A stretch of DNA of 63,162 nucleotides, counting the filler. It is 6 parts of 6 records of this genome, joined end to end, with 100 filler letters (N's around TTAATTAATTAA, not from the genome) between each part and the next. Parts side by side here need not be neighbours in the genome. Positions count along the whole stretch, not along the records: positions 22,072 to 45,704 come from SRR31156797_18687; 5 more parts are not named here. The stretch is one strand, 5' to 3'. The position numbers were made by a program, and so were the translations under genes. The notes under the pieces are model-generated. The model made no database searches. It had not been told where the DNA came from and saw only the letters and a list, made by a program, of their open reading frames with translations. Below, piece by piece: positions 24,540-45,804 of this stretch. Every line of letters begins with the position of its first letter. Position 1 is the first letter of the stretch.

Positions 24540-24591
24540 AATAAATATAAAATATTATTATTTACCAAGAATGTATAAATAGTTTTCAGCC

Positions 24592-26393: not shown

Positions 26394-26399
26394 TCGAGC

Positions 26400-29353: not shown

Positions 29354-29836
29354 TCATCTGATTTTGATGATATTCGTTCTGTTGTAGTCCGGATTCATTC
29401 CGGTACTCCTTCCATTCACCAAGATATGATTGTAATCGATTCCGTTCCTCTCTCGGGAATACTCCCGCAAAGCCCGCGCCAAGATTGATACATTGTGTAT
29501 ACCCAGATCGAGGGCCTTCATGTGGTGTGACTTTTTACACCTTCCGCCTTTCTTGTACTCCCGGTAATCTTCGGCTACCCTGTGCTTTCTGTACGGAAGC
29601 TTATGCTTGGTGATGAGCCGCTCATTGCAGTTAATGTGCACCTCAATCCCAAACTTCCCACACCACCTGAACTCAAAAGGCGTGAAGTAAGCCTCCAGTA
29701 TCCGGTCTCCCTTGTATTCCAGTACAGCCAGATGCTCTTCAAAAGAGTCCCCATCGGCATACTCCCCCTGTCTGGCTACTCCTACAATATGGAAGTTCAG
29801 AATCATATCTTTCACACTTATTGTTTTTGGTATCAT
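29354..29836 (-). CDS. Phage hypothetical protein, leaderless class III start
   Basis: GACTAT-GAGAGC-ATG directly upstream. Confidence 0.65.
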   Translation of the reverse strand: MIPKTISVKDMILNFHIVGVARQGEYADGDSFEEHLAVLEYKGDRILEAYFTPFEFRWCGKFGIEVHINCNERLITKHKLPYRKHRVAEDYREYKKGGRCKKSHHMKALDLGIHNVSILARALREYSRERNGIDYNHILVNGRSTGMNPDYNRTNIIKIR

Positions 29837-29884
29837 GCTCTCATAGTCTGCGGGTCAGCCGGGAGGGATTTCTGATGACTAATC

Positions 29885-29913
29885 ATGACATCGTTTCGAG
29901 GCTATGTTAAGTT
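29885..29913 (+). promoter_or_regulatory. Class I promoter/operator
   Basis: ATGACA tcgtttcgaggctatgt TAAGTT. Confidence 0.75.
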
Positions 29914-29936
29914 ATTATCATATTTGGGAGGATTAT

Positions 29937-30254
29937 ATGAAAGTACTTGAAAGAGTCCTTGTGAAGATCAAGGAGTTCAATGAAATCCAAAAAAAGTATG
30001 CGGAGTTTGGAGGCAGAGATACTGAGCCCGATGCAGAGTTTCAGTTGGCCCTCTCCAAGGCCCTGAAAGGTAAGAAGGAAGTACCGCGTTCCGCAGATGA
30101 CTGGGCCCTTTACGGACATGCTGAAGGAGAGATGGTTGCCTATGAAATGACCACTAAAACAAATGAGATTGTTAAGCTGATCACACATGCTACAATATCA
30201 GAGCATGAGCGTCTTAAAGACGGTTTGGCTCCACACCTCTGGAGGATTCGGTAA
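29937..30254 (+). CDS. Phage hypothetical protein
   Basis: GGGAGG SD, ATG 29937, follows class I promoter. Confidence 0.7.
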   Translation: MKVLERVLVKIKEFNEIQKKYAEFGGRDTEPDAEFQLALSKALKGKKEVPRSADDWALYGHAEGEMVAYEMTTKTNEIVKLITHATISEHERLKDGLAPHLWRIR

Positions 30255-30494
30255 ATGGATATGGAGAAACTGAAGGAAGATCCGATTTACGGGAAGCATA
30301 ATTCAGTCAGCACCATTGAGCAGGTCTATGTGACCCCTCTGAAAAAAGAGATTATTGCTTGGGAAGGCATAAAAAAGACTGCGGAGGAGATCAATTACTC
30401 CGATCTGATCCAGCAGGCTACAAAGACTCTGGAAGAAATGGATGACTGCTTGCAGTATTATGAGTCCCACAAGCACCTCCTTGCAGGAGGCTGA
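30255..30494 (+). CDS. Phage hypothetical protein
   Basis: GGAGG SD, abuts previous stop. Confidence 0.65.
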   Translation: MDMEKLKEDPIYGKHNSVSTIEQVYVTPLKKEIIAWEGIKKTAEEINYSDLIQQATKTLEEMDDCLQYYESHKHLLAGG

Positions 30495-30516
30495 GAGCGG
30501 TTGGGTTAACCCACGA

Positions 30517-30545
30517 TTAACCTCGTTACGAAATCGTGTTAAGTT
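30517..30545 (+). promoter_or_regulatory. Class I promoter/operator (degenerate)
   Basis: TTAACC tcgttacgaaatcgtgt TAAGTT, then CAAGGAGTAGTTAGATG. Confidence 0.6.
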
Positions 30546-30577
30546 TTTATCAAATAGTTCAGTCAAGGAGTAGTTAG

Positions 30578-30961
30578 ATGACCGATGAAATGATTTACAA
30601 CCTTTACAGCCAGTACGGAAGCTTCATGGCGCCACTCGGCCTGAGTGACCGTCAGTTAAAGATGATTCAGAATTACCTCAGGGGGATTTCCGTTCCCGAT
30701 CTGGTCCAAGGTATGGCACAGATCCTTTCGATGCTTCAGAAAGGCGTCAGAGGCGCAGAAAGCCGCCCCATGGAGGATCTCTCTCAGATGGTTTGTGAAA
30801 CTGAAGACACCGCCATGGAAGGGTATATCTCTGACGCCACAGAGGACGTGATTCCGGTGGCAGAACGTACGGCTTTGAAGTACAATCAGACTACGCTCCA
30901 CAGTGGGTGTTTATCTTGGTTCGGATTGAGCCTTTTGTGGGGAGAAGAATATGATGATTAA
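30578..30961 (+). CDS. Phage hypothetical protein
   Basis: AAGGAG SD. Confidence 0.7.
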   Translation: MTDEMIYNLYSQYGSFMAPLGLSDRQLKMIQNYLRGISVPDLVQGMAQILSMLQKGVRGAESRPMEDLSQMVCETEDTAMEGYISDATEDVIPVAERTALKYNQTTLHSGCLSWFGLSLLWGEEYDD

Positions 30962-31184
30962 CGGCAGATCGCAGGCGAAACAGCATGATGAAATGCCTGC
31001 TTCCCATTTAGGGATGGCTCGGGTTTTGATGGTGACGGAGCGGAAGATTCTACTCCATGCAGGTAAGCGGATCATCGTCGGTGTTCATCACTGGATCGAT
31101 GAAAACGGTTCCATTCAGTGGGGAAACGGTCACTATCACAATGATGACCTGGTATCAGCAGTAGCAGATATGCAAAGAGATTAA
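30951..31184 (+). CDS. Phage hypothetical protein
   Basis: Overlaps previous stop; WGNGHY motif. Confidence 0.65.
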   Translation: MMINGRSQAKQHDEMPASHLGMARVLMVTERKILLHAGKRIIVGVHHWIDENGSIQWGNGHYHNDDLVSAVADMQRD

Positions 31185-31204
31185 AACAAAACGTTTTTTA
31201 TAGC

Positions 31205-31234
31205 AGAGCCTCCGGACAATCCGGGGGCTTTTTT
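31205..31234 (+). terminator. Rho-independent terminator
   Basis: AGAGCCTCCGGA-CAA-TCCGGGGGCTTT followed by T-run. Confidence 0.8.
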
Positions 31235-31247
31235 ATATACTGCGGGT

Positions 31248-31490
31248 ATGGATAATCCCGGTCTATTTGTAGATGAAATGATCAATATGATCTGTCTTCA
31301 AGTACTCACTCAGCGTAAAAGCTTCCGTCGCCCTATGGATCTCCGCGATAATCTAGACTTGTACACCGTTCAGAGGATCTCTGAAGAATACATGGGTGTG
31401 TATGGATTCAACATAGAGCTTCTCGATGAAGTAGTGGACCGTGTGATGTGGGATTGCATGGAGCAGATCATCGAGCACGAAAAGGGCTGA
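31248..31490 (+). CDS. Phage hypothetical protein, probably leaderless
   Basis: TATACT 6 nt before ATG, no SD. Confidence 0.6.
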   Translation: MDNPGLFVDEMINMICLQVLTQRKSFRRPMDLRDNLDLYTVQRISEEYMGVYGFNIELLDEVVDRVMWDCMEQIIEHEKG

Positions 31491-31793
31491 CTACATGCCT
31501 ACCAGATTCCTGTCGGAGTCTCTCTTGGTCAGGGCGAAGTGCTGGTACGTCGTCCCATCCAATACCACATTCTCCAAGAAGTACTCGACGCTGATCATCG
31601 CCTGTACATTTGAGCCGGGGATCTCAAGACAGACCTGCTCTTGCCCGGTTGCATATTCAACAATGATTCCCAGCACATGCACAAGTTCACCACAACAGTG
31701 CACGTAAAGCCCCGGTTCAATCTTTGCCTTTGGCTTATAGTATCTTATGTCTTCGAATGCCTTAAGCATTTTCTTCTTTGTTGAAACTGCCAT
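31491..31793 (-). CDS. DUF1653-like protein, leaderless class III start
   Basis: PGLY-H--G----VLG...T-QE-V...F-E-V--DG pattern; AACTAT-AAAGGC-ATG. Confidence 0.55.
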   Translation of the reverse strand: MAVSTKKKMLKAFEDIRYYKPKAKIEPGLYVHCCGELVHVLGIIVEYATGQEQVCLEIPGSNVQAMISVEYFLENVVLDGTTYQHFALTKRDSDRNLVGM

Positions 31794-31803
31794 GCCTTTA
31801 TAG

Positions 31804-31831
31804 TTGACAATATTGTAGCGTACGCTACAAT
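31804..31831 (+). promoter_or_regulatory. sigma70 promoter containing a perfect 20-bp palindrome
   Basis: TTGACA 31804, ATTGTAGCGTACGCTACAAT 31812-31831 whose last 6 nt are the -10 (TACAAT); ATG 31839. Confidence 0.72.
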
Positions 31832-31838
31832 TGAACTT

Positions 31839-32675
31839 ATGAAAGCATTAAACCAATACCAGAAGTTCGAGATGGCCTATGAGTTTTTCAACCGGGCATT
31901 GTTTCACAACCAGCTCCCGGAGGCCTTCATTACCCTCCAGTCGAAGGGTGGTTCCTACGGCTACTATTCGGAGGGCCGCTTTCGGAGAGGGACTGGAGGG
32001 GATGAAAAGCTTGATGAGATCGCACTGAATCCCGACTATTTCTTTTATGGTGAACTGGAGGTACTCCAGACACTTGCACATGAAATGGTGCATCTCTGGC
32101 AACATCACTACGGGACCAAGAGTCGTTCCGGATATCACAATCAGGAATGGGCAAACAAAATGGAAGCCATAGGGCTAATGCCTTCCGACACGGGTAAGCC
32201 GGGAGGGAAGAAGACCGGGCAGAAAGTGGCCGACTATGCTATTGAGGGAGGTCCTTTCATGGAGGCCGTGACCGCGCTCAATGAAGCTGAAGGAGCTATA
32301 GTAGATTGGGGATACTTCTCATGGGAGTCTCACCGGCTGGAGCAGATCCACCTGATTAGAGAGAATATGATGTACATGGAGTCCGTAGAGGGGGTCCGTC
32401 AGGGCTCGTATATCACAGTTGGACCTTCCACAGTAATGGTGGATGATGTAGATGAAAATGAGAACTCAGTCAATTTTCACACAGTGGCCGGTCCGGAGCT
32501 TCCCCCTAATGAAATCAATGAAATCCTCGACGGATTCATAAAAACCCCCCAGATAGTCAGGGACAGGGGTAAGAACAAATATTCCTGCCCAAGCTGTGGT
32601 CTGAGCATCTGGGGGAAAGCAGGGATCCGCGTGTTGTGCATGGAGTGCGATGTGCAACTCCAAAAAAGCAATTAG
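31839..32675 (+). CDS. SprT-like zinc metalloprotease with C-terminal zinc ribbon
   Basis: FN--LF---LP, AHEMVH, GYHN-EWA-KM--IGL-P, KYSCPSC...CMEC. Confidence 0.85.
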   Translation: MKALNQYQKFEMAYEFFNRALFHNQLPEAFITLQSKGGSYGYYSEGRFRRGTGGDEKLDEIALNPDYFFYGELEVLQTLAHEMVHLWQHHYGTKSRSGYHNQEWANKMEAIGLMPSDTGKPGGKKTGQKVADYAIEGGPFMEAVTALNEAEGAIVDWGYFSWESHRLEQIHLIRENMMYMESVEGVRQGSYITVGPSTVMVDDVDENENSVNFHTVAGPELPPNEINEILDGFIKTPQIVRDRGKNKYSCPSCGLSIWGKAGIRVLCMECDVQLQKSN

Positions 32676-33652
32676 GCGGCGTTATCGATCAGACAACCTC
32701 GGAGATCCTGAAAGATCCTTCCACCAGCAAACTTTGAAAACAAGTTAGTATCTGCCTTGCTCAAGGTAGCAAGAAGTTCAGGGTTCTCCTTGGTGAAATC
32801 AGACATAGCATCCTCCATGTAATACGTTGCATACTCCTGAATCTTCGGGAACTCCTCCAGAGGACCATACTTCGAAAAAAGAGAATCAAGCCTCTCCTCA
32901 TTTACATACGCCGAGAACTCGTTCAATGCGGCTTGAAGCTCGGGTGAAAAATCCTTGGGGGCCTTCACCCTTGGCTTGGACTTCTCAAGAAACTTCTTAT
33001 TCTTCACCTTGAACGCCACTAGATGTTCACCAGCGTATCTAGTGACGTAGTAAGGAGTATACACCAGCCCTTCCCTTACGTTGTCTCCTGAGTGATCCTC
33101 AGGCGTCAGGGCGGACATCCTGTGAGGCTCGAAGGAATTCAGTATCTCCCATAGCCCTCCAGCTTCACAATGCTTGATTAAACCTATCACCGGCACCTTC
33201 AGATCCAGAAAGCTCATCAGTAGTCGGCTGGCCTCAAATGGTGTCAGATACTCCCCATCGATTCTCACTGCATACCAGCGAAACAGTTTCGCTGCTCCAT
33301 AGTTCACACCCTTCTGAACAGATCCCCCAAAGAGCTCCCCGTAAACCTGCACAACTTCTCCAGAGAGTGCACAATATCCAGACAGGTGACCTACCAACTC
33401 CATGAATCGATCATTATTAAGTAGCTTATGATATCCGTAGAACTTGTCTCCTTCTTTCAGGACCTTTGTCCGGGAGCAGAACTTGATAGGCTTATCAGGT
33501 TCACATAGGAGCGAGAAGTTTGCTCCATGGATTTTTTCTGTCACCTCGTAGGTGAGACTTCTCAGTTCAGGGTACCGCTCGTCCCAAATACCCAGCGTGG
33601 CCCTGTGGTTACTCAATGTGAGTTCCGAATACTTCTTAAACATTTCGCTCAT
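32672..33652 (-). CDS. RNA ligase 2 (T4 Rnl2 family)
   Basis: FKKYSEL, motif I EKIHGANFS, QVYGELFG--VQKGV-YG, REGLV, FKVKN-KF-E. Confidence 0.88.
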   Translation of the reverse strand: MSEMFKKYSELTLSNHRATLGIWDERYPELRSLTYEVTEKIHGANFSLLCEPDKPIKFCSRTKVLKEGDKFYGYHKLLNNDRFMELVGHLSGYCALSGEVVQVYGELFGGSVQKGVNYGAAKLFRWYAVRIDGEYLTPFEASRLLMSFLDLKVPVIGLIKHCEAGGLWEILNSFEPHRMSALTPEDHSGDNVREGLVYTPYYVTRYAGEHLVAFKVKNKKFLEKSKPRVKAPKDFSPELQAALNEFSAYVNEERLDSLFSKYGPLEEFPKIQEYATYYMEDAMSDFTKENPELLATLSKADTNLFSKFAGGRIFQDLRGCLIDNAA

Positions 33653-33692
33653 ATCCTTCTCCTTGATTCCATCAACAGCTTCATATTGAAGT

Positions 33693-33722
33693 AAGTACGC
33701 GGCGTAGCTCCGGATTAGAGAA
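33693..33722 (-). promoter_or_regulatory. Class II motif TTCTCTAA-N17-TACTT
   Basis: Minus strand TTCTCTAA tccggagctacgccgcg TACTT upstream of Rnl2. Confidence 0.7.
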
Positions 33723-33742
33723 ATATATTAAAAAAAACTTGC

Positions 33743-33771
33743 TTGACCTCGTTTCAGGGTCATGTTAAGAT
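33743..33771 (+). promoter_or_regulatory. Class I promoter/operator
   Basis: TTGACC tcgtttcagggtcatgt TAAGAT, then CCAAGGAGTTGTTAGATG. Confidence 0.78.
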
Positions 33772-33801
33772 CTTTACATCTTATATCCAAGGAGTTGTTA
33801 G

Positions 33802-33912
33802 ATGGATCGTGAGTTTATCTGTAATGCAATGATTTTCCTGCTCATGTGCGGCGTTCCCGGTGCGATGGTTTTCTGGTTTGTGATTCTTGGTAAGCCTTGC
33901 AAATGGAAATGA
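33802..33912 (+). CDS. 36-aa single-TM peptide (absent from ORF track)
   Basis: MDREFICNAMIFLLMCGVPGAMVFWFVILGKPCKWK; own promoter and strong SD. Confidence 0.7.
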   Translation: MDREFICNAMIFLLMCGVPGAMVFWFVILGKPCKWK

Positions 33913-33914
33913 AA

Positions 33915-33943
33915 ACTATATAGTAGAGGGTAACCTCAGGAGG
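33915..33943 (+). promoter_or_regulatory. Class III motif followed by 5' hairpin and SD
   Basis: ACTAT-ATAGTA-GAGG GTAA CCTC-AGGAGG. Confidence 0.62.
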
Positions 33944-33948
33944 GAATC

Positions 33949-34173
33949 ATGTTCCGCAGAAAGTTACATCACATAGTAACGCAATCAGAGCTCTGGGAAT
34001 ACTTCGAAAAGTATGCCCGCTATCATGAGCAATCCGGGCAGTACTGCTTGTGGGATATTTTCGATCAGACCCTTGAGGGTTTGATGCAGAAAGTAGAGAA
34101 GGTCTGGAAGTATGAGCGATTTCACCCGGACCATACACTGACCACAGAACAAGTGCTGGCACTCCCAGCATAA
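33949..34173 (+). CDS. Phage hypothetical protein
   Basis: AGGAGG SD, followed by terminator. Confidence 0.68.
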   Translation: MFRRKLHHIVTQSELWEYFEKYARYHEQSGQYCLWDIFDQTLEGLMQKVEKVWKYERFHPDHTLTTEQVLALPA

Positions 34174-34180
34174 TGAGACG

Positions 34181-34207
34181 AGCCTCCCAATCGGAGGCTT
34201 TTTTTTT
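34181..34207 (+). terminator. Rho-independent terminator
   Basis: AGCCTCC-CAATC-GGAGGCT followed by T-run. Confidence 0.82.
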
Positions 34208-34212
34208 GATAA

Positions 34213-34242
34213 TTCTCTAAAGAATGTCAATTTCCCGTACTT
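34213..34242 (+). promoter_or_regulatory. Class II motif TTCTCTAA-N17-TACTT
   Basis: TTCTCTAA agaatgtcaatttcccg TACTT, ATG 7 nt later. Confidence 0.7.
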
Positions 34243-34249
34243 CTCAGGT

Positions 34250-34801
34250 ATGGAAAAAATTACCGCATATAACTTGAAAACCGCTATACTTTCATATTTC
34301 CGATTCAAGCGTCAAATGCTCTGTGCAACAGAAGTGCATGTAGGATTAGGATACATGGGTGATGTGGTTGCTATCAACAAAAAAGATGAAGTATTAGAGA
34401 TCGAAGTGAAGATCAGTCTATCGGATCTGAAGAACGAACAGAGGCACAAGAAAGAGAAGCATTCTGCACTTGTGCAAGAGTCCCGAGCAAAAGTTAATTA
34501 TTACTATATAGCTATTACTTCTGAGCTCTATGAGAAGGCCAAACCAGAGATAGAAGCGCTCAGTCCTAAGTATGGAATCATCACTTGGCATCGATGCTCA
34601 AACCCTAAAATGCAGAACTCAGAGTTTGAAGTGAATATCATGAAAAGACCCACAAAGCTCACTAGCAAAATTTTCCCAGAATACCGGAAGAATATAGCCA
34701 AGCGAGCTTCAAGTGAGCTGATCAACTTACATCGAAAAATGCTAAAAGTTAATGGTTGGAATATTCTGAGGGATCAAACCAAATCTGTCCTCCGTTCTTA
34801 A
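34250..34801 (+). CDS. MmcB-like PD-(D/E)xK nuclease
   Basis: ATEV...DVVA...EIEVKIS-SDL, NYYY, YGII. Confidence 0.7.
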   Translation: MEKITAYNLKTAILSYFRFKRQMLCATEVHVGLGYMGDVVAINKKDEVLEIEVKISLSDLKNEQRHKKEKHSALVQESRAKVNYYYIAITSELYEKAKPEIEALSPKYGIITWHRCSNPKMQNSEFEVNIMKRPTKLTSKIFPEYRKNIAKRASSELINLHRKMLKVNGWNILRDQTKSVLRS

Positions 34802-35078
34802 TCGTGACATCATAAATTGAGTTCTCAGCATCAAATACTGTCTGAATAAATGTTTTCAATTCAATGTCTTTTTGCATAGCTTGTTTGTACACAGCCGTGA
34901 GGATCTTCATGGCATCAATATCTCGTTGAGCGATCTTACAGAACTCACCATAGGTATAAATGGTGTTCCGGAAGTGTACAAAGAGCTTCTCATCACGTGA
35001 GAAAAACTCAACTCCTGTGAATTCTTGTAGTTGAATTTTTTCCAATAATCTACCATATTCGGTAAAGGGCTTACTCAT
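34749..35078 (-). CDS. Phage hypothetical protein, leaderless class III start
   Basis: GACTAT-AAATTT-ATG. Confidence 0.62.
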   Translation of the reverse strand: MSKPFTEYGRLLEKIQLQEFTGVEFFSRDEKLFVHFRNTIYTYGEFCKIAQRDIDAMKILTAVYKQAMQKDIELKTFIQTVFDAENSIYDVTIKNGGQIWFDPSEYSNH

Positions 35079-35122
35079 AAATTTATAGTCCTATTTTTTA
35101 TGAGGTTTCTACTCTAGAATTG

Positions 35123-35151
35123 TTGACATCGAATCGAGGCCATGATAAGGT
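35123..35151 (+). promoter_or_regulatory. Class I promoter/operator
   Basis: TTGACA tcgaatcgaggccatga TAAGGT, then CCAAGGAGTTGTTAGATG. Confidence 0.78.
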
Positions 35152-35181
35152 GTTATCAACAAAGAGCCAAGGAGTTGTTAG

Positions 35182-35469
35182 ATGGCTAATTTTTCTGTAA
35201 AGATTTCTAAGAAGGCGCTGAAGAACTACAAAGATTTACCCAGTTCAGTACAGAGGAAGCTACAGCTTCTAATTGATTCCCTTGAGGAACATGGCCCTGT
35301 ACAGACGGCGTTTCGGAACTACTCCAAAATGGGGTCGTACTGTAACCTTGGAAATAATGCACACCACTGCCACTTGGCACCCAGATACGTTGCTGTCTGG
35401 CGGTGTGATGAAGCAGGAAGAGAAGTAGAGGTGGTGTATGCTGGTACACGTGAAAAAGCCCCGTATTGA
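35182..35469 (+). CDS. RelE/HigB-like toxin
   Basis: V-ISKKA-K-Y--LP--VQ...GPV...NYSK...HHCHL---YVAVW...EV-Y-GT-EKAPY; 95 aa, precedes HTH gene. Confidence 0.75.
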   Translation: MANFSVKISKKALKNYKDLPSSVQRKLQLLIDSLEEHGPVQTAFRNYSKMGSYCNLGNNAHHCHLAPRYVAVWRCDEAGREVEVVYAGTREKAPY

Positions 35470-35800
35470 AATGGAGGGGGACATCCCCCTTGATTTCATC
35501 GAGGACATGAGATGTAGATTTGGTTCTGAGAATGTTGAAGTCATCGACGACTCTCAGTCTCTTCTTGTCCGGGAGCTCACTGAGTTTAAAAAGCCCCTGA
35601 CCCCCGGAGAGAGACTGAAGACACTACGTGAGATGAAGGGCATGACTCAGAAGGAGCTTGCAAAGTTGGTGCACTCAAGAGACACCAACATTTCATTACT
35701 AGAGTCTGGAAAGAGGGTAATATCCGAAGAGAAGGCAGAAGCTTTTGCTCAGGTATTTGAAGGCGTAAGCCCTCGCTTCTTCCTGACGAAGAAGGATTGA
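35438..35800 (+). CDS. XRE-family HTH antitoxin (HigA-like)
   Basis: PGERLK-LRE-KGMTQ-ELA...IS-LE-GKR-IS; overlaps toxin. Confidence 0.78.
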   Translation: MLVHVKKPRIEMEGDIPLDFIEDMRCRFGSENVEVIDDSQSLLVRELTEFKKPLTPGERLKTLREMKGMTQKELAKLVHSRDTNISLLESGKRVISEEKAEAFAQVFEGVSPRFFLTKKD

Positions 35801-36891: not shown

Positions 36892-36895
36892 GATC

Positions 36896-38908
36896 ATGAA
36901 TAAAGACCTGACAAGCAATACACGTGCAGACTACAACGACGACCGTACCCCTATTGAGGTAGGGCAGTGGTACTGGGTGCCAGGATATGAAAATGAAAAA
37001 TATAACCTGTCGTATTTTGGCTTAGTGGTGGGAGGACCTGAGGGTGCCCTTCTGATGTGTGTAACGCATGTTGGATCTAACTATGTTGAACTGGCCTCTC
37101 TGAGTAGCCAGCGTCATGGAAAGGCATCAAGGCGCATTCACCTTGAAAACTTCGATGAGAAAACTATATATGTCCCGAATGCTGAAGACCTGTTTCAAAA
37201 GTCTCTAGGACACCATCGAGGTGAGCTGAAGAAGTTGATGAATGAGGTTCGTAAAGTCACTGCGCTCCTTGGGGTCTCCGATAAAGAGATGATTGGAGAG
37301 CAGTCTGTAGAAGCAAACAGCACAGCGCTAGCCTTACAAAACTCAAATATCTCAGCTAGTGAATATAAGAAAGATCTGATTAGAGCAAAAGATCAAACTC
37401 TCCCAGATCTCTTCGAAAAGGTAAAGTCAAAAAATCAAGAGATTGCTACTCTTATGTCCCATGAAGTAGTTGCGCTTAGTGCAGTTATCGATGGTATGGA
37501 AGAGGTCAAAGGCGCAATTGAAAAGAGGATTTTCAATGTCTCCCTATATGCTGGACTGATTGAAGAAGTTACTTGCATACATGAAGGAGAACCGGGTGCC
37601 TTCCATGAACAAGTCCACCTTTTCCAGAAATGCCTTTATATGGATGAAGAGTGTTTGGTCAATTATGAAGCTGGCGGAATGGAGTTCCGTGACATCCAAG
37701 AGTTTGATGAATGGCTCTGTAGGCCTGAGTACATGCACAGGTATTTGCCTTATGAGAAGTGCATTGTCGCATTTCAGGTGAGACGGAATGTCAAAGACCG
37801 AGGACCTATTGAATCCATAGCTGATGCTTTCATTCGCTTCTATTTGGAGCAGAAGGATAAACTGACCTTCCTGTATATGAGGAACGGTGAGCAGGTATAC
37901 AGGCTCTCTACGGATCTGGAGTTCAGGGATCTTATTTTCCCAAGCTTGAAAGACTTTGATCCTTCATCCCCCATGACAGTCAAGCTGGATTCATGGGGCC
38001 GGGCTGAACGGTTTATGAACACTACCTCCTTCGAAAAGCTCAAAGCTGACGAAGATAAGGAAAATGAAGAGAGAAGACGAAACAGAGAGCAGTGGTTTAA
38101 GGATAATCCCGAAGACGAATGGAAGAAGCACGGGCAGAACAGGAACTTCAGTTACAAATATGCTAATCCCTTTGCAGAATGGGATAGTACTGAATATCAA
38201 AGTTCAAGTTGGGTACCTTTCAATAAATCTTCCGTGTACTACGATGACATCTCAAAATCACTGAGTGATAAGATTGAACACTACAACCGGATTGCTTTGA
38301 TCATGCAGGGACTTCTAGACAGATCTGAAATCTTTCACCCCCATCCTCCAATCAAGACATGGAAAGGAGACAGCTTCCAGCAGATGGTTAAGCTCATCTA
38401 CGATGGGGAGATGAACATCTATAATGGGGAGAAGCCTGACTTCGACGCCTACAAAGAGAAGTGTAATGCACAGATCAATCGTGACTCGGTGTTCTATGGT
38501 CAAGATGCGCTCTGGAAAAAGCATGTTCAGCGAGTAGAAAATGACAGAAGAGCTGGATCTTACAAGTACTACGGGGAGAATTGGCAGGTGAACGATAGGT
38601 GGACTCCTGAAGGAAACGACGGTCCCCAACGGATATCAAAGCCTGTCCGTATGAGTCGAGACCTCTCAAAAGCTACTTTCGAGTGGATGAGGAGAATTGA
38701 GAACTGGAGATCTGAAAACTACGGGACAGATAAAGTTGCACGTTTTACTGCACCAACTTCTGAACTGTTCAATGTCAGTGCATATCAGCCGGGTGATTTC
38801 AAGCAGTTCTTTGAGGACCCCAGAACTCGTGAAGAATACCTGAAATGGGCTCCCTTGCTTCTGGCTTGTGAGGACTATTATGCGCAGTCGGGGCGAGGAG
38901 GGAAATAA
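36896..38908 (+). CDS. Large phage hypothetical protein with coiled coil
   Basis: 670-aa ORF; LYAGL-E, YMDEECL, CIVAFQVRR. Confidence 0.8.
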   Translation: MNKDLTSNTRADYNDDRTPIEVGQWYWVPGYENEKYNLSYFGLVVGGPEGALLMCVTHVGSNYVELASLSSQRHGKASRRIHLENFDEKTIYVPNAEDLFQKSLGHHRGELKKLMNEVRKVTALLGVSDKEMIGEQSVEANSTALALQNSNISASEYKKDLIRAKDQTLPDLFEKVKSKNQEIATLMSHEVVALSAVIDGMEEVKGAIEKRIFNVSLYAGLIEEVTCIHEGEPGAFHEQVHLFQKCLYMDEECLVNYEAGGMEFRDIQEFDEWLCRPEYMHRYLPYEKCIVAFQVRRNVKDRGPIESIADAFIRFYLEQKDKLTFLYMRNGEQVYRLSTDLEFRDLIFPSLKDFDPSSPMTVKLDSWGRAERFMNTTSFEKLKADEDKENEERRRNREQWFKDNPEDEWKKHGQNRNFSYKYANPFAEWDSTEYQSSSWVPFNKSSVYYDDISKSLSDKIEHYNRIALIMQGLLDRSEIFHPHPPIKTWKGDSFQQMVKLIYDGEMNIYNGEKPDFDAYKEKCNAQINRDSVFYGQDALWKKHVQRVENDRRAGSYKYYGENWQVNDRWTPEGNDGPQRISKPVRMSRDLSKATFEWMRRIENWRSENYGTDKVARFTAPTSELFNVSAYQPGDFKQFFEDPRTREEYLKWAPLLLACEDYYAQSGRGGK

Positions 38909-38909
38909 C

Positions 38910-39092
38910 ATGGGAGAAATTTCGGATTTGATCATCGAGGGAATCCTCTGTGAAATCTGTGGCGTTGTCGTGAATACTGAGCCCGTAGGATACCCGGTTA
39001 GATGTGACAACTGCCTTCAGGAAAGGCTTGAAATGCCCAAGGGGAGTCATTCCCTGCTGAATGTTGATGCAGTAAAGAAGGGAGACTGTTAG
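38910..39092 (+). CDS. Small zinc-finger protein
   Basis: AGGAGG SD; MGEISDLIIEG-LCE-CG...GYP-RC-NC. Confidence 0.65.
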   Translation: MGEISDLIIEGILCEICGVVVNTEPVGYPVRCDNCLQERLEMPKGSHSLLNVDAVKKGDC

Positions 39093-39553
39093 TGGCTAGT
39101 GTCTTAAAGCATCCGGGTGGTGGCTATAGGGTATCTTGGTTTGACCCGGAGCACCAGTTGCATCAAGAGTACTACTACGGAGAGAGAGCCTTCTCCCTTG
39201 CACATCGACGAAAGAACGAGATTGAGAATCTCATTCCTGACGGTCGGTTAATCCCAAAGATTCAAAAGAAAAAAGGACGTGCAAGTAAGACAGGTAGGAT
39301 TGGTGTCTTTTACCAGAAGGGTTACAAAAAGACATCTGGAAAAGACGTTTACCCATATTACTATGTCAGTATTCATTATGACAGGAATGGTAATCAACGA
39401 AGAAGAACTGCGACCTTCTCTGTGATCAAGTATGGAGAAGAGAATGCTTTTAAGCTGGCCTGTGAACTTCGACAAATGTATGAAGAGTGTATTGATCCTT
39501 TTGATATGGAGAGGTTCTGGGATTTTAAAGATGCACAAAGAGAAGGTTGGTGA
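39092..39553 (+). CDS. AP2-like DNA-binding protein (paralogue B)
   Basis: S-TG--GV, TFSV-KYGEE-AF-LA---R AP2 motif. Confidence 0.65.
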   Translation: MASVLKHPGGGYRVSWFDPEHQLHQEYYYGERAFSLAHRRKNEIENLIPDGRLIPKIQKKKGRASKTGRIGVFYQKGYKKTSGKDVYPYYYVSIHYDRNGNQRRRTATFSVIKYGEENAFKLACELRQMYEECIDPFDMERFWDFKDAQREGW

Positions 39554-39554
39554 G

Positions 39555-39854
39555 ATGGAAGTCAAATCACTTAACGATCTTGCATGGGAACTTGCAGAGT
39601 ATCATTCGATTACCCTGTATGAATACCCCAACTTTGCAATCTGGGAAGAGGCTAAAAGTGGTGGGATTTTCAAGACATCGGAAGAGTGGGATGGTTGGAA
39701 TCGTCGACAACTGTGGTCCCTATTTAAGTCCATCATGGAGTTTCGAGCAGTAGAAGGTGATACAGAGTCAACTTATGGTAAGCATATTGATATGGCCGAC
39801 AAGACTCTGTTGGCGTTTAGAAAGATATTAGGAGTTCTTCAAGATGGGAGATAA
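39555..39854 (+). CDS. Phage hypothetical protein
   Basis: ATG 1 nt after previous stop. Confidence 0.6.
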   Translation: MEVKSLNDLAWELAEYHSITLYEYPNFAIWEEAKSGGIFKTSEEWDGWNRRQLWSLFKSIMEFRAVEGDTESTYGKHIDMADKTLLAFRKILGVLQDGR

Positions 39855-40053
39855 TTGGCTAGATGTATACAACGGATTGATACAAGGCTACCAATCCCGA
39901 ACAAATGAGAAATTTGAAGAGAATGTTCCTTTTCAGCCCCCAAAGAATGTTCAAGAGGCAAAAGAAAACATTTCATATCTGAGGAGCTGTTTTTACGATC
40001 TTCACACTGATGTAGATTGTTTTTTATCTCGGGGAATGGGAGAACTTGAATGA
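39844..40053 (+). CDS. Phage hypothetical protein
   Basis: AGGAG SD, coupled to neighbours. Confidence 0.55.
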   Translation: MGDNWLDVYNGLIQGYQSRTNEKFEENVPFQPPKNVQEAKENISYLRSCFYDLHTDVDCFLSRGMGELE

Positions 40054-40235
40054 ATGTACGGGAACTGAAAAATGCCATGATTCGTCTGGAGCGACATGGC
40101 TATAAAGAGGTGGAAGTGCATATGTTTGCACATGACCATGACTACGAAGCAGTGGATCAGGGTGTTGGAGAAGTCGTTTATGTGGACTTTGTAGAGCGTG
40201 AAGATGGTAGCGAAATTGTGGCCCTTCACCGATAG
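40050..40235 (+). CDS. Phage hypothetical protein
   Basis: ATGA overlap. Confidence 0.6.
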   Translation: MNVRELKNAMIRLERHGYKEVEVHMFAHDHDYEAVDQGVGEVVYVDFVEREDGSEIVALHR

Positions 40236-40259
40236 TCTGTAGAACAGGAGGTAGCTGAC

Positions 40260-40565
40260 GTGGAAGAGTATTTTAAAGCGGAGATTTATCAGGCGGGTGA
40301 CAGTAGTGTAGGGATCTGGGATTTTCATCATGTTCTTGATCTGGGCTACAACCGGGAGGATATTCTGGACCCGGATGAGCCCGAAGAGCGTGAAGCGCTT
40401 CGAAAGAAAGTTCTTGAGCTCTATAAAATGATCTGTGACCCGGGTAATCCGATTCAGGTGACCTTCTCGGATGAGTGCGCCTGTTGTGGTGCAAGAAACG
40501 GCGCAGAACATGCGTCATGGTGTGATGTTGATCTGGAAACACTGCCAGCCAGCGAGATAGCGTAA
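40260..40565 (+). CDS. Phage hypothetical protein with C-terminal Cys/His cluster
   Basis: AGGAGG SD, GTG start; GD-SVGI motif; CACC...H---C. Confidence 0.65.
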   Translation: MEEYFKAEIYQAGDSSVGIWDFHHVLDLGYNREDILDPDEPEEREALRKKVLELYKMICDPGNPIQVTFSDECACCGARNGAEHASWCDVDLETLPASEIA

Positions 40566-40570
40566 GCATC

Positions 40571-40750
40571 ATGGCTGTAATGTACGGAAAAAAAGAAATC
40601 GAAACATTGCGGGTTCTTCAAGGACAGTTTGATCCTGATTTGCCGTACGGAGGTAGCGAAGTTCTGGAAGTAATCGAAAATATGATTGAGCTTCTGAAGG
40701 ACGGTTTTTCTTTGGAAGAAATCAAAGAACAAGGCTGTGGAATTGGATGA
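40571..40750 (+). CDS. Small hypothetical protein (59 aa, absent from ORF track)
   Basis: MAVMYGKKEIETLRVL...; fills the gap in a + strand gene string. Confidence 0.5.
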   Translation: MAVMYGKKEIETLRVLQGQFDPDLPYGGSEVLEVIENMIELLKDGFSLEEIKEQGCGIG

Positions 40751-40816
40751 ACTTAACTTCTGATAATAGATCTTCCGTCTACATCTTGATTTACATATAT
40801 AGACAAAGGAGTATTT

Positions 40817-41125
40817 ATGCAAAATGATTATAAAAATTTGTCTTTGGGGGAACTTTATGTGATGCAACGCAAAATAAATAGTGCAATAAAATTGAAGGAG
40901 AGGCAAGAAAAGCGATTAGCTCAAAGAAAAAACATTAAAGCTGTGCGGGACAACCTTAAGATCCATCAATGGGTAGTTTGTTCATTTGGTCACGGTGGAC
41001 GTAAACAGGAGACCGGTCAGGTCATCTCTATTGGTATGGAAACGTTCAAGGCTATTCTACCTGATGGCTCCACACCAAATATCCCATATCATCGAATTTT
41101 GGAAGTGAAAAATGGAAATACTTGA
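40817..41125 (+). CDS. Phage hypothetical protein
   Basis: AAGGAG SD; N-terminal helix plus SH3-like strands. Confidence 0.65.
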   Translation: MQNDYKNLSLGELYVMQRKINSAIKLKERQEKRLAQRKNIKAVRDNLKIHQWVVCSFGHGGRKQETGQVISIGMETFKAILPDGSTPNIPYHRILEVKNGNT

Positions 41126-41849
41126 AACAACTGATTATTCAAAGTTCTCTTACATACATGGAAATAGGAATGTGGATGAATCACATGTAAACCAGCTAGT
41201 TGGGGCGATCAAAGAAACAAACCTATACAAGCCCCTCTATGTCACCCCCTCCTTACAAATCCTTGAGGGTCAGCATACACTGTCAGCGTTGGAAATCCTC
41301 AAGCTACCTGTGTATTATATTGTGGTTCCTGAAAGAACCCGCGCAACGTCTCTTAGGGACATTGGACTTTTGAACACAAAGACGAAACCGTGGACAGCTA
41401 AGGATTTTCTGAATAACTATGTGTCCCAGAATCTCCCCGCTTATGTTATATTTAAGCGGTTCATGAGTGACTTTGGCTACTCCCTTGCTGTGACACAGGT
41501 CATCTTCTTTCATCAGACTATTTATGGTGAAAAAGTTAATCGGAGCGTAGTCTTCCGGGATGGCCTGATGAGTATCAGCGAAAAACAAAAAGAGCAAATC
41601 TGGAATGTTGGTAAGATGATCCAACAAATGAAAGATACTACTTTAGGCTGTGATGGGATTATCGGAACAAAGAAAAGCATTGCCGCTCTTTTAGATATTT
41701 TCCATAGAAGTAAGTTCAGCATTACCCATTTCCTACAGAAGCTGGAGGAACGGCCTAACACTCTGCACTACGAGGAAAGCCTAGAAGCATATCTCTTTCA
41801 ATATTTGAGCATTTACAATTACAAAACACCAAGAATTGAAAGAATTTAG
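41112..41849 (+). CDS. ParB/Srx-like N-terminal domain protein
   Basis: TTDYSKF----GNR-V---HV--L...P--V...I-EGQH-L-A...PVYYIV. Confidence 0.72.
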   Translation: MEILETTDYSKFSYIHGNRNVDESHVNQLVGAIKETNLYKPLYVTPSLQILEGQHTLSALEILKLPVYYIVVPERTRATSLRDIGLLNTKTKPWTAKDFLNNYVSQNLPAYVIFKRFMSDFGYSLAVTQVIFFHQTIYGEKVNRSVVFRDGLMSISEKQKEQIWNVGKMIQQMKDTTLGCDGIIGTKKSIAALLDIFHRSKFSITHFLQKLEERPNTLHYEESLEAYLFQYLSIYNYKTPRIERI

Positions 41850-41865
41850 CTGAAATCTGATCGAT

Positions 41866-42186
41866 ATGCCCTGCCAACTATCATGGCATGGAGCATACTG
41901 GCGCACGAAGTGCAAACACATCAATCAGGTAGCCTCCGGGTTGAAGTTTCTAGTGGAAAAGAAGCTAGTTCAACCCGGAGGCTATAATCTTGACTGGGGA
42001 GGCGGTAAGTATGACAGCGGCACCCAGTATCTAAAATCGCACAACATTGAAAATGTAGTATATGACCCCTACAATCGGTCCCCAGTGCATAACCATAAGG
42101 AGATCCTTGACAACCTTCCGATCTCTGAATCACAGGTATTCCGCGATGGGAAGCTCCTTTTGATAAAGAAGTATTTGGACACTTGA
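41866..42186 (+). pseudogene. Short or internally deleted methyltransferase-like gene
   Basis: LDWGGGKYD and VYDPYNR present but only 106 aa. Confidence 0.45.
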
Positions 42187-42211
42187 CACCGTTTCGAGGT
42201 CATGTTAAGTT
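42183..42211 (+). promoter_or_regulatory. Class I promoter/operator
   Basis: TTGACA ccgtttcgaggtcatgt TAAGTT. Confidence 0.8.
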
Positions 42212-42234
42212 CTTATCACAGAGAGGAGAAAAAC

Positions 42235-43089
42235 ATGGCTAACGAGTTCATAAAAGTACTGGACAGAGAGACCAAACAGGATATCCGCCATTGGGCCAGA
42301 AGGTACAAGGGGTATGAAAGCCCCGTACGAACCTTCCTGAAGTGGTGTGAGGACTCGAACCGCTTTGAACTGACCATGGAGGTGTTGGCGGACTACCGGG
42401 ACTATATTGCTCCGAAGTACCAACCCTCCACTGTCAGGAACAAGCTCTCCTCTCTTAAAAGCCTATACAAATATTTGAGCTTTGCGGACGATAACCGAAT
42501 CTATGTAGACCATGACCTTTCTCAGATCCGCTCTGGAGTGCAAGTGCGGCACAACGGTGCACTTTCACATAGGATCTTCACTCATGAGGAACTGGACAAC
42601 TTCTATGTTAGTGCACGACGTGAATATCAGTGGGTGGTCCGTGCACTCTTCCACTCGGGTGTCCGTATTAGCGAGCTTCACCAAATGAATCTGAACCGGA
42701 TGGAGTACCGCCCTCATTTAGGAGAGTATGTTCAGACGGTAAAGACCAAGACGGGAGAAAGGGAGCTCCGCTTGTCTACACAGATCTTCGAAGCACTGGT
42801 TGCATTCTGGCAGGACTCTCGGGATGAAGAAGGGAACCTGTTTGGAATGAAGCTGAATACCTTCAACAAGGCGGTTAGCCGGGAGATCAAGCGCCATGGA
42901 GGTCATACTCTCTCCGCTCACTCTACACGTCATACCCTCGGCACCTATATGGTTGAAGCCGGAATTGACTACTCCGAAATTCAGCAGAGACTGGGACATT
43001 CTGACATATCCATCACCCTGCGGTTCTACGTAAAATCTCGCTACACTGAGGCTGGACAGAGGGTCATTGAAGGCCTGATCGGAGCATAA
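42235..43089 (+). CDS. Tyrosine recombinase (XerC/D-like)
   Basis: SGVRISEL, TK, HSTRHT, LGHS-I--T--Y catalytic set; SAM-like N-domain. Confidence 0.88.
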   Translation: MANEFIKVLDRETKQDIRHWARRYKGYESPVRTFLKWCEDSNRFELTMEVLADYRDYIAPKYQPSTVRNKLSSLKSLYKYLSFADDNRIYVDHDLSQIRSGVQVRHNGALSHRIFTHEELDNFYVSARREYQWVVRALFHSGVRISELHQMNLNRMEYRPHLGEYVQTVKTKTGERELRLSTQIFEALVAFWQDSRDEEGNLFGMKLNTFNKAVSREIKRHGGHTLSAHSTRHTLGTYMVEAGIDYSEIQQRLGHSDISITLRFYVKSRYTEAGQRVIEGLIGA

Positions 43090-43102
43090 GCACTATGAGA
43101 GT

Positions 43103-43612
43103 ATGGAATATGTAGATTTTGATTGGAATAAGTGGGCCGTAGAAGGTCAGAAGAAAATGGATGCTGAAGAACAGGGCCTTCGTCTGAAAGAAAAGGAACA
43201 GATAGAGACTTTAGCTCAGCTCGAAGCAAAATTAAATTCTGCACTTGAGGAGTTGGATTGGGACACCATCTGGGCTACTGAAAAGCAGATCAATGAGATC
43301 AAAATTTCCAACCACCAGATAGAAACAGACCGCACTCGGATCATGACTGAAGAGCAGAAGATCAGGTACAGTTGGTTGACGGGTGCAGATCGGAAGAAAC
43401 TCAAAGAGCTACAAGGATTTATTGGGATACTGGATCATGCACGGTACATCATGAGTCAGCAACCCAATGACCCTCAGCAGATCGAGAATGCCGGAAGGTA
43501 TGTGATGTCCATGGCAAAGAAAAAAGGGTGCTCTCAGCACACCCTGATGCACTTCCAGCCCTGTATAAATGCCATGGTAAAAGCAGAGCTAAAGTCTCGC
43601 TCCCTCAAATAA
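43103..43612 (+). CDS. Phage hypothetical protein, leaderless class III start
   Basis: CACTAT-GAGAGT-ATG. Confidence 0.68.
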   Translation: MEYVDFDWNKWAVEGQKKMDAEEQGLRLKEKEQIETLAQLEAKLNSALEELDWDTIWATEKQINEIKISNHQIETDRTRIMTEEQKIRYSWLTGADRKKLKELQGFIGILDHARYIMSQQPNDPQQIENAGRYVMSMAKKKGCSQHTLMHFQPCINAMVKAELKSRSLK

Positions 43613-43614
43613 AA

Positions 43615-43673
43615 TTCTCTAAAAAATCGACTCATCCTCTACTTAGAACTATAAAACCGGGAGTGTAGCTCCC
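43615..43673 (+). promoter_or_regulatory. Tandem class II and class III promoters with 5' hairpin
   Basis: TTCTCTAA(43615)-17-TACTT(43640); ACTAT(43648)-AAAACC-GGGAG TGTAG CTCCC(43659-43673). Confidence 0.7.
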
Positions 43674-43705
43674 AAGAAAAGTTCTAAGCAAAAGAGGTTT
43701 ACTAA

Positions 43706-45178
43706 ATGAGTAATGCTGATGCATTCGCAAATGCCAGAAAGAGAAGAGCGGCTGAAAGACAAGTTGAGCAAGATCGCAAAAATGGAAATTATGGAGGGAA
43801 CTTCGAGGAGACCCCCTATACTCCTCTGATCACCAACGGTTGGAAGGCATTTCGCCTCCTTGGTCTGCCAGTAGGCACCGAGGGAAGGACCCCCACCGAT
43901 CCCAAGCTTATTGAGAGCTCTATGATTCTGGCGGACAACGAAAAGAAGTTCCGTGTGACATGGGATACCAATGAAAACTGGATTCTGAGAAGAATCTACA
44001 ATCTGGTACTGGCGGGTAAGTGGAACTCCACCACCAACTCCAAGGATTATGACTATGCCAATCGCTGTCCTACCATCTTCCAGAGAGTCTACAAGAACTC
44101 CAATCCTCAGAACCAGTATGAGAACGGCTGGAGGCCCACCAAGTTCGTTGTGCAGAATGTAATCGACTTGTCGATGCTGGATAGTCACAGCGAAACCGGG
44201 ATGGCAAAGATCCTTTCCAAGAAAGAACCCAAGCCCAAACCCGGACAGGAAAGACTGTTCTACGAGCGGGGTTACGCCCCTACCCTGTACAACATGATCT
44301 GGGATAACATCGTAGAGTTCATGGATGACTGGGAAGGCTACAATGTGGCCGTGAAGAAGCTGACGGACGATCCTTGGTACAAGGCCTACCCCGCAAACAG
44401 CTCTGACCTAAAGATGTTCCTGACTCAGGAAGATCCTACCCTGCTGGCTCTCCTCGAAGATCAACAGGTGAATGACCGAGTGAGCGAAATGGTAAAATCT
44501 CTGAAGAGAGTGGATATCGACAAGATCACTCAGGTCACCAGCTACACCAAAATCATGAACAAGCTTGGTGGATTCATTAAACAGGTTGATGAGTATTTCG
44601 GTAGAAATTTCTACGTGGAGCTGGAGAGTGAAGTGGCCCGTGAAAAGGCCCTGTGGGATTCTCAGAAGGCACAGCAGGCCGATGCCAATGGTACCGTTGC
44701 TGATCCTACGATGGCTGGACACCAGCATGTGACTCCTCCCCCTGCGGCTCCCGTTGCACAGGGAACTGTCGCTCAGCCTGCTCCAGCACCTGTACAGACC
44801 TATAGTGCACCTGCAACACCTCCTCCCGCACAACCTGTGGCCCCCCAAGGAGGTGCGCCTGCGGCACAAGCGGCTCCTGCGCCCACCACTCCGGTAGCGC
44901 AAACTCCCCCCATGGAGAGACCTGCTCCCGCCGCACCTGCACCTGTGCAAAGTGCGGAATACCCCGGCCTGAGTCCGGAGTATAAGGGAATGCATCTTCT
45001 GTCCCTCGAAGAGAAGGCCGTAATCCGGGGAGTAACCCCCACCGGTGATCTGGACTTTTTTGAGGCCGATGCCGCAGGGAACCCTGTGACTCTGATGCGC
45101 TGTTCATGCCAAGGCGTGAGCCCCGCATCCTATTCTGTATGCCCGAAGTGTGGAATCACCTTCCAGCAGGCGGCGTAA
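43706..45178 (+). CDS. Putative gp32-like single-stranded DNA-binding protein with Pro/Ala linker and C-terminal zinc ribbon
   Basis: Basic N-terminus, AFRLLG, W-P-KF-VQNVID, EGYNVAVKK....Y pattern resembling the gp32 core; PAPA-rich tract; CSC...CPKC. Confidence 0.55.
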   Translation: MSNADAFANARKRRAAERQVEQDRKNGNYGGNFEETPYTPLITNGWKAFRLLGLPVGTEGRTPTDPKLIESSMILADNEKKFRVTWDTNENWILRRIYNLVLAGKWNSTTNSKDYDYANRCPTIFQRVYKNSNPQNQYENGWRPTKFVVQNVIDLSMLDSHSETGMAKILSKKEPKPKPGQERLFYERGYAPTLYNMIWDNIVEFMDDWEGYNVAVKKLTDDPWYKAYPANSSDLKMFLTQEDPTLLALLEDQQVNDRVSEMVKSLKRVDIDKITQVTSYTKIMNKLGGFIKQVDEYFGRNFYVELESEVAREKALWDSQKAQQADANGTVADPTMAGHQHVTPPPAAPVAQGTVAQPAPAPVQTYSAPATPPPAQPVAPQGGAPAAQAAPAPTTPVAQTPPMERPAPAAPAPVQSAEYPGLSPEYKGMHLLSLEEKAVIRGVTPTGDLDFFEADAAGNPVTLMRCSCQGVSPASYSVCPKCGITFQQAA

Positions 45179-45181
45179 CCG

Positions 45182-45212
45182 AAAAAGCCTCCCTTCGGGG
45201 AGGTTTTTTTTT
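45182..45212 (+). terminator. Rho-independent terminator
   Basis: AAAAAGCCTCCC-TTCG-GGGAGGTTTTTTTTT. Confidence 0.88.
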
Positions 45213-45224
45213 GACTATTAAGGC

Positions 45225-45704: not shown

Positions 45705-45804
45705 NNNNNNNNNNNNNNNNNNNNNNNNNNNNNNNNNNNNNNNNNNNNTTAATTAATTAANNNNNNNNNNNNNNNNNNNNNNNNNNNNNNNNNNNNNNNN
45801 NNNN
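45705..45804. other. Artificial contig spacer
   Basis: N-run with TTAATTAATTAA core. Confidence 0.98.

Follow-up and report, generated by a model that had tools for sequence, protein, structure and literature searches.

An ACTAT box six nucleotides before start codons as a predicted promoter element in a probable large-phage contig

The stretch of DNA analyzed here (63,162 nucleotides [nt]; the window) was read as three joined contigs, on the basis of linkers of the form N...TTAATTAATTAA...N at 21972-22071 and 45705-45804. All sites of the element under study, the word ACTAT followed by six nucleotides and then by a start codon or a hairpin, lie in the middle contig, 22072-45704 (23,633 nt). 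The last 20 kb of this contig recur without interruption within a 152,783-nt contig of run X1, and the contig represents about 15% of a large phage genome, an origin that is probable rather than proven. A preliminary description of the window had listed five genes reading ACTAT, 6 nt, ATG, and two intergenic copies in which a stem-loop takes the place of the ATG and is followed by a gene led by a Shine-Dalgarno (SD) sequence. All five genes were found at the positions given, with no upstream in-frame start in any of them, and both stem-loops exist and begin exactly 6 nt after ACTAT. The seven sites are as follows (aa, amino acids; ORF, open reading frame).

29834-29847, minus strand: ACTAT (29843-29847)-GAGAGC-ATG (29834-29836), start of the 160-aa ORF 29354-29836
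31791-31804, minus strand: ACTAT-AAAGGC-ATG, start of the 100-aa ORF 31491-31793, divergent from the gene at 31839
35076-35089, minus strand: ACTAT-AAATTT-ATG, start of the 109-aa ORF 34749-35078
43092-43105, plus strand: ACTAT-GAGAGT-ATG, start of the 169-aa ORF 43103-43612
45214-45227, plus strand: ACTAT-TAAGGC-ATG, start of the ORF 45225-45704, which is cut by the contig end
33915-33937, plus strand: ACTAT-ATAGTA-hairpin GAGG-GTAA-CCTC (33926-33937), then SD AGGAGGG and ATG 33949
43648-43673, plus strand: ACTAT-AAAACC-hairpin GGGAGT-GTA-GCTCCC (43659-43673), upstream of the SD-led 490-aa gene 43706-45178

ACTAT-N6-ATG had seven matches in the window where 1.86 were expected, a count that none of 100 shuffles reached. 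The two matches outside the five genes are not gene starts, one (41877, plus strand) opening a 14-codon ORF and the other (58977, plus strand) falling inside an ORF of another contig. In the middle contig, six copies of ACTAT preceded an ATG at a spacer of 6, versus 0 to 3 copies at each other spacer from 0 to 20; the other two contigs contained 0 and 1 copies of ACTAT-N6-ATG. Counting by offset at gene starts of the contig gave the same peak, with ACTAT at spacer 6 in 5 of 45 starts (single-test binomial probability, 8e-10). This was the top pair of 5-mer and offset, followed by AGGAG at 9 (4 of 45), and in 2,000 random draws of 45 ATGs no word-offset pair exceeded 4 copies, a count attained in 26 draws. 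The 45 starts were called as the longest ORFs; at least four of them (24602, 26364, 29904, and 42202) are probably set too far upstream. No one-mismatch variant of ACTAT occurred at spacer 6 of the first starts, so that the word is sharply defined.

Across the contig ACTAT was present in 44 copies, about the random rate, 31 of them inside genes. Noncoding DNA, which makes up 7.7% of the contig, contained the other 13 copies versus 3.4 expected (P = 6e-5), and 10 of these 13, by our reading, point to a gene start within about 110 nt. One intergenic copy is a candidate member with a leader.

24572-24583, minus strand: ACTAT-N6-A, 105 nt upstream of the SD-led 303-aa gene 23567-24478

A different copy, at 23520-23556 on the minus strand, lies within the 25-nt loop of an 11-bp hairpin that is followed by a T-rich tract and is likely the terminator of the same 303-aa gene.

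None of the five ORFs has a possible start ahead of its ATG. With 14 long ORFs of the contig as the training set, codon-usage scores for the annotated frame were 0.14 to 0.21, the best of six frames in all five ORFs; five overlapping decoy ORFs scored 0 or below, with the opposite strand winning for four of them. Support from homologs for the position of the start covers two of the five genes. The sole homolog of the 45225 product (P0121, 59% identity) begins at the same methionine (MSGIELPSIQG versus MSEFELPTIQG), and the homologs of the 160-aa product of the 29836 gene are 146 to 159 aa long and align from the N terminus. One of the remaining three products (31793, 35078, and 43103) had no match in tblastn or in a protein atlas, and the 169-aa protein of 43103-43612 had no match in the atlas. 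Predicted duplexes with the anti-SD sequence were between -2.7 and -3.9 kcal/mol for the five genes (-2.7 kcal/mol for 29836), against a median of -6.55 kcal/mol for the other 40 starts, 23 of which were at or below -6. None of the in-frame starts downstream of the five ATGs has an SD sequence; the 35078 ORF offers, within 50 codons, no alternative start except a TTG at codon 12, which lacks one too. The seven served genes (the five putatively leaderless ones and the two at hairpin sites) matched no family in Pfam, PADLOC, or NCBIfam; five are without a known family, and one has only a protein-language-model lead, to a gp32-like single-stranded-DNA-binding protein. The earlier suggestion that the promoter is probably late gained no support from the genes of the 23.6-kb contig, where no virion gene was seen and where the one lead would point to replication.

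The arrangement of these sites suggests that ACTAT probably represents positions -11 to -7 of a promoter whose transcription start (+1) is the A of the ATG. In the geometry of a sigma70 -10 element, an A stands at -11 and a T at -7, with six nucleotides between the hexamer and the start; ACTAT-N6-A fits this, its first A falling at -11, its last T at -7, and the A of the ATG at +1. All seven sites read NACTAT, with A at hexamer position 2 and T at position 6. At the five ATG sites position -1 is C, C, T, T, and C, a pyrimidine in every case, and +1 is A; the spacer from hexamer to start codon is 6 in all five, without an SD sequence, as in the class of leaderless genes with an adjacent -10 region considered below. 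Conventional -10 hexamers stand at N6 or N7 from the ATG of three other contig genes, two of them with TTGACA -35 boxes.

26364-26402, plus strand: TTGACA-18-GATATT-N6-ATG (26400), a conventional promoter placed for a leaderless helix-turn-helix (HTH) regulator gene
31205-31250, plus strand: terminator (31205-31231), then TATACT (31236-31241)-N6-ATG (31248)
31804-31841, plus strand: TTGACA-16-TACAAT-N7-ATG (31839), 11/12 consensus, no SD

The general pattern ANNNT also peaked at spacer 6 (9 of 45 starts versus 0 to 6 at other spacers), two of the nine being SD sites read by accident. Three of the boxes head lone minus-strand genes in a plus-strand contig, so that a promoter is needed there. 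The same holds for the box at 45214, since it lies directly behind an intrinsic terminator (stem 45188-45203, T9 run) and begins 10 nt after the stem. Two terminator modules on the plus strand, 34180-34211 and 45186-45219, are 74% alike over 34 nt and continue as TTTGATAAT and TTTGACTAT, respectively, so that GATAAT and GACTAT occupy the same place.

Under this reading, RNA polymerase would open the DNA at ACTAT and start 7 nt past its last T. In the five genes that start would be the A of the ATG, and the resulting messenger RNAs (mRNAs) would be leaderless and translated independently of an SD sequence. The earlier proposal that the shared offset marks +1 thus gained indirect support, from the -10 geometry, the conventional comparators at N6 and N7, the missing SD sequences, and the pyrimidine at -1. 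Around the leaderless ATGs no wider RNA structure was significant, except for a DNA palindrome at 31760-31850, and no Rfam family matched at the gathering score. The box appears to belong to the promoter repertoire of a large phage, with a transcription start there that we infer, and overall it is a well-supported prediction from sequence.

Several observations weigh against a start on the ATG or limit what the box could do by itself. Each step from sequence to transcription start is an inference, and the sites come from about 15% of a genome. The best TTGACA matches at the seven sites were 1, 2, 2, 4, 2, 2, and 1 of 6, against a background mode of 2 to 3, and none of the seven has TG at -15/-14, which bears out the earlier remark that no -35 is shared; other promoters of the contig, unlike the ACTAT sites, carry good TTGACA boxes. 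Without a -35 or a TG, host holoenzyme alone should read the box poorly. The bases at -12 are G, A, G, C, G, A, and A, without a T at any of the seven sites, and the middle bases C-T-A are invariant, a demand that host sigma70 does not make. Since 31 copies of this 5-bp word occur inside genes at a random rate, the word alone cannot define a promoter; the proposed single-element promoter thus stood as a description, given the missing -35, but is incomplete as a mechanism. The five sites contain two pairs of near-identical 14-mers (13/14 each; ACTATGAGAG[C/T]ATG twice and ACTAT[A/T]AAGGCATG twice), so they may not be independent events. There was no enrichment of ACTAT-N6-ATG in 78 loci of distant relatives (24 at spacer 6 versus 7 to 22 elsewhere). 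Finally, weak promoter-like matches (9/12) upstream of two of the minus-strand genes, at 29910-29882 and 35170-35142, could yield mRNAs with leaders, although such matches are about as frequent in shuffles (22 found versus 15.4 +/- 9.8 expected).

The lack of a -35 and of TG, the consistent absence of T at -12, and the invariant C-T-A together suggest a helper, which would be a factor made or modified by the phage: an activator, a sigma appropriator, or a phage sigma. The absent T at -12 and the invariant core in particular point to a factor for polymerase specificity. No sigma or gp55 homolog was matched among the contig ORFs (47 and 37 proteins scanned), no gp33 homolog was seen in the 23.6-kb contig, and no RNA polymerase gene was matched in it. 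Two other promoter types were rejected on their consensus sequences: a sigma-S-type alignment with C at -13 leaves no T at -7 and would place the start after the ATG, and a T7-type promoter does not fit because there is no conserved upstream region.

The two hairpin sites bear on the same offset. Both genes that follow are SD led, as had been described, with anti-SD duplexes of -10.8 kcal/mol (33949) and -6.5 kcal/mol (43706). Hairpins began at spacer 6 after 3 of 44 ACTAT copies versus 0.70 expected (P = 0.034), a marginal excess, and the coincidence is weak evidence for +1. Hairpins that stabilize mRNA lie within a few nucleotides of its 5' end, a position that the two stem-loops would take up if +1 were at spacer 6. 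At 33915, the palindrome ACTATATAGT that contains the box also gives TTGCAA (33897)-16-TATAGT (33919-33924), a 9/12 match to consensus with a 16-nt spacer, which would start about 5 nt later (about 33931), inside the hairpin loop. The chances are evenly balanced that this site is an ordinary sigma70 promoter, TTGCAA-16-TATAGT, at which the ACTAT offset is a coincidence of the palindrome. The small number of spacer-6 hairpins and the lack of significant wider structure at the site (z = -0.50) fit that explanation, and the frequency of 9/12 matches in shuffles counts against it; a start set by ACTAT and a start set by the conventional promoter are about equally plausible here.

The site at 43648 forms part of a larger structure. 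The RNA of 43630-43711 (82 nt) was predicted to fold at -27.2 kcal/mol (z = -4.42), and none of 200 shuffles folded as well. In the predicted fold, 43630-43640 pairs with the SD sequence AGAGG (43693-97) and with AUGAGU (43706-11), and 43642-43650 pairs with 43680-43688; ACTAT (43648-43652) falls within or next to the 5' arm 43642-43650. In silico, the SD sequence and the AUG are therefore both paired and ACTAT lies in the 5' strand, the layout of a promoter within a hairpin. A transcript starting at 43659 would lack the 5' arm entirely, so that the ribosome site of the 490-aa gene would be freed, SD sequence and AUG included. In read-through RNA the structure would hide the ribosome site at 43706, and a short mRNA started from ACTAT would escape it. 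As part of this modeled structure the site fits a +1 set by ACTAT; alternatively, the predicted duplex of 43630-43711 may be processed by RNase III. The 490-aa protein of 43706-45178 had a language-model lead to the gp32 family (score, 0.91 to 0.92) without support from Pfam; a gp32-like single-stranded-DNA-binding product would make it a replication gene. It consists of an N-terminal domain (to which the gp32-family lead from the protein atlas applies), a Pro/Ala-rich linker, and a zinc-ribbon-like C-terminal end (CSC...CPKC), this end being the sole well-predicted part of an AlphaFold model with a predicted local distance difference test (pLDDT) score of 35.

For the motif as a whole, it is unlikely that ACUAU-N6-AUG is an RNA signal that, on longer transcripts starting upstream, either binds a translational regulator or recruits ribosomes. 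The motif is tied to the start codon, where translational operators also lie, and its spacers are purine rich (GAGAG, AAAGG, and TAAGG). Longer transcripts are conceivable from the 9/12 promoter-like matches upstream of two sites and at the 43092 box, which begins 3 nt past the stop codon of an integrase-like gene, where cotranscription is plausible. An RNA signal would leave unexplained, however, that conventional -10 hexamers, two with a -35, stand at the same distance from three ATGs, and the terminator 10 nt upstream of the 45214 box leaves little read-through RNA on which to act. ACUAU is also without complementarity to the anti-SD sequence (duplex no stronger than -3.9 kcal/mol), and at the hairpin sites the box is far from any start codon.

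Descent of the sites from one short gene-start cassette, which recombination or duplication would have spread so that the shared word reflects common ancestry, was considered improbable. The two 14-mer pairs (ACTATGAGAG[C/T]ATG and ACTAT[A/T]AAGGCATG, 13/14 identical each) are what such copying would leave, as is the 74% likeness over 34 nt of the terminator-plus-box modules at 34181 and 45186, but the five proteins are mutually unrelated and the likeness ends at the 14-mer on both sides. A cassette carrying a promoter and a start would in any case still function, and its main effect would be to lower the count of independent events. Trimming of longer transcripts to short-leader mRNAs by an endoribonuclease that cuts at ACUAU is very improbable, despite a weak RelE/HigB-like gene in the contig and the location of the 43648 box in a long duplex of the kind cut by RNase III, since a cut in ACUAU would leave a 6- to 10-nt leader without an SD sequence and of no obvious benefit, the match to -10 geometry would go unexplained, and we know of no nuclease of ACUAU specificity.

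A promoter with +1 on the ATG, by comparison, has precedents. In the Thermus phages Lalka27a and YS40 (bioRxiv 10.64898/2026.04.20.719267), most transcripts are leaderless and start six bases after TANNNT, so that the RNA begins on the A or G of the start codon, and conventional TTGACA/TANNNT promoters coexist with them. Their late class uses a -10 variant, TAGGGT, without an ordinary -35, from which its authors deduce a phage factor that alters host polymerase specificity. The contig resembles these phages in having a -10-type box six bases before the start, a distinctive variant without a -35, and conventional promoters alongside. It differs in that the box is NACTAT without T at -12 and in that about 8 of 45 genes look leaderless, most genes keeping a strong SD sequence. 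A leaderless strategy based on a -10 box is thus already known from Thermus phages, and the box ACTAT itself is new.

Genes of Deinococcus-Thermus with a -10 region adjacent to the ORF, as set out by Zhong et al. 2025 (PMC12340547), have TANNNT 6 to 7 bp before about a third of ORFs; T at position 1, A at position 2, and T at position 6 are nearly invariant, and the mRNAs are leaderless without a ribosome-binding site. The ACTAT sites share with this class the spacing, the missing SD sequence, and A(-11)/T(-7). Unlike that class, they lack the first T in 7 of 7 sites, which weighs against a start on the ATG, and have the middle three bases invariant instead.

T4 late promoters at genes e, soc, 49, and I-TevI are described in a review (PMC3014915) as sitting inside a hairpin that sequesters the ribosome-binding site. 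At 43630-43711 the SD sequence and AUG are likewise predicted to pair with an upstream strand encoded by the putative promoter DNA, and in the style of T4 gene e a short transcript could be translated whereas a long one would be silent. The T4 late box differs, being TATAAATA and read by gp55. The ACTAT sites do not match this box: TATAAA is present in 3 of 7 sites only, and on T4 geometry the start, so aligned, would fall after the ATG.

Late promoters of the phages AR9 and phiKZ, as covered in a review (PMC7598289), are A(-11)ACA-N6-U-A/G(+1) and T(-3)ATG(+1), respectively, and are used by non-virion RNA polymerases; the review notes that so short a jumbo-phage motif cannot suffice alone. 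Like these promoters, ACTAT is a very short single element that starts at -11 or overlaps +1 and has no -35. The sequences are different, phiKZ starts on the G of TATG with mRNAs that are not leaderless, and sigma70 promoters are present in the contig. The box does not match a late promoter of the AR9 or phiKZ type: the motifs AACA-N6-TA/G and TATG differ from it, and neither split beta/beta' genes nor any other RNA polymerase gene was matched in the 23.6-kb contig.

A more far-reaching proposal is speculative and rather doubtful: that an unstudied phage lineage of about 153 kb encodes a specificity factor, either a divergent sigma or a protein that appropriates sigma, whose recognition word is ACTAT. 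Such a factor would recognize a -10 element that has neither T(-12) nor a -35 nor TG, and the box would define a genome-wide temporal class in which leaderless mRNAs are combined with the freeing, in the manner of T4, of the ribosome site hidden at a gp32-like gene. Should the box be a promoter, it would offer a simple rule for locating transcription units and true start codons in a lineage with one known relative, and SD-led and leaderless genes would be combined in yet another phage outside Deinococcus-Thermus. The structure at 43630-43711 would then be an example of promoter choice switching translation on, a mechanism described, in the work cited, for T4-type phages.

Several ORFs of the contig matched PHROG families. 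Its genes include those for an Rnl2-type RNA ligase, a SprT-like protein, a tyrosine recombinase, a ParB-like nuclease, a radical S-adenosylmethionine protein, and HTH regulators, and no virion gene was seen in family scans of the ORFs of the 23.6-kb contig. Two phage isolates, of 131 kb and 150 kb, encode homologs of the 670-aa protein of 36896-38908 (plus strand), and a 168-kb phage has a partial match to this protein, although it had no match in Pfam, PHROG, or PDB. Homologs scored at an E value of ≤0.001 numbered 978, with 20 loci in genomes and 57 in viral contigs, the latter mostly on contigs of 90 to 530 kb. About 60 residues were invariant in a 41-sequence alignment of this protein, which is common in large phages and megaplasmids. 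Its neighboring genes are not conserved: at an E value of ≤1e-5 the loci of these homologs had no second gene in common with the contig, apart from two weak matches to one ORF. Scans with the contig DNA found no close relative; the sole close relative, a 127,749-nt contig, is known from three proteins. The flanking contigs of the window carry ordinary cellular genes and need not be the host. In the third contig most genes lack an SD sequence, in contrast to the phage contig, so the three contigs need not share one organism. An integrated element was rejected as an explanation of the window, since the 104-nt direct repeat that would have bounded it is the contig linker of N runs.

Other control elements were recognized in the contig, among them a repeated promoter/operator motif.

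29884-29916, 30516-30548, 33742-33774, 35122-35154, and 42182-42214, plus strand: five copies of the 33-nt motif TTGACaTCGTTTCGAGGyCATGTTAAG

This motif can be read as a -35 and an extended -10 separated by a 17-nt spacer, and its own sequence forms an inverted repeat (TTGACAT...ATGTTAA). Its 27-nt pattern had no match in viral or metagenome contigs, and a further exact 43-nt copy of the promoter/operator is present elsewhere in the 153-kb contig. The 45-bp divergent region 31794-31838 contains a perfect palindrome, GTAGCGTACGCTAC, between two apparently leaderless genes (31793, minus strand, and 31839, plus strand), and a 21-nt copy likewise recurs elsewhere in the 153-kb contig. At 35182-35800 (plus strand), behind one of the 33-nt promoters, a small RelE/StbE-like ORF (a weak match, E = 4e-4) overlaps an HTH_3 ORF, and the pair looks, from sequence, like a toxin-antitoxin system of the HigB/HigA type. 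Two paralogous proteins, encoded at 28254-28730 and 39092-39553 (plus strand), share 30% identity over 148 aa, and one of them has a subthreshold match to the AP2 domain, which we take as a possible mark of homing-endonuclease-like DNA-binding proteins.

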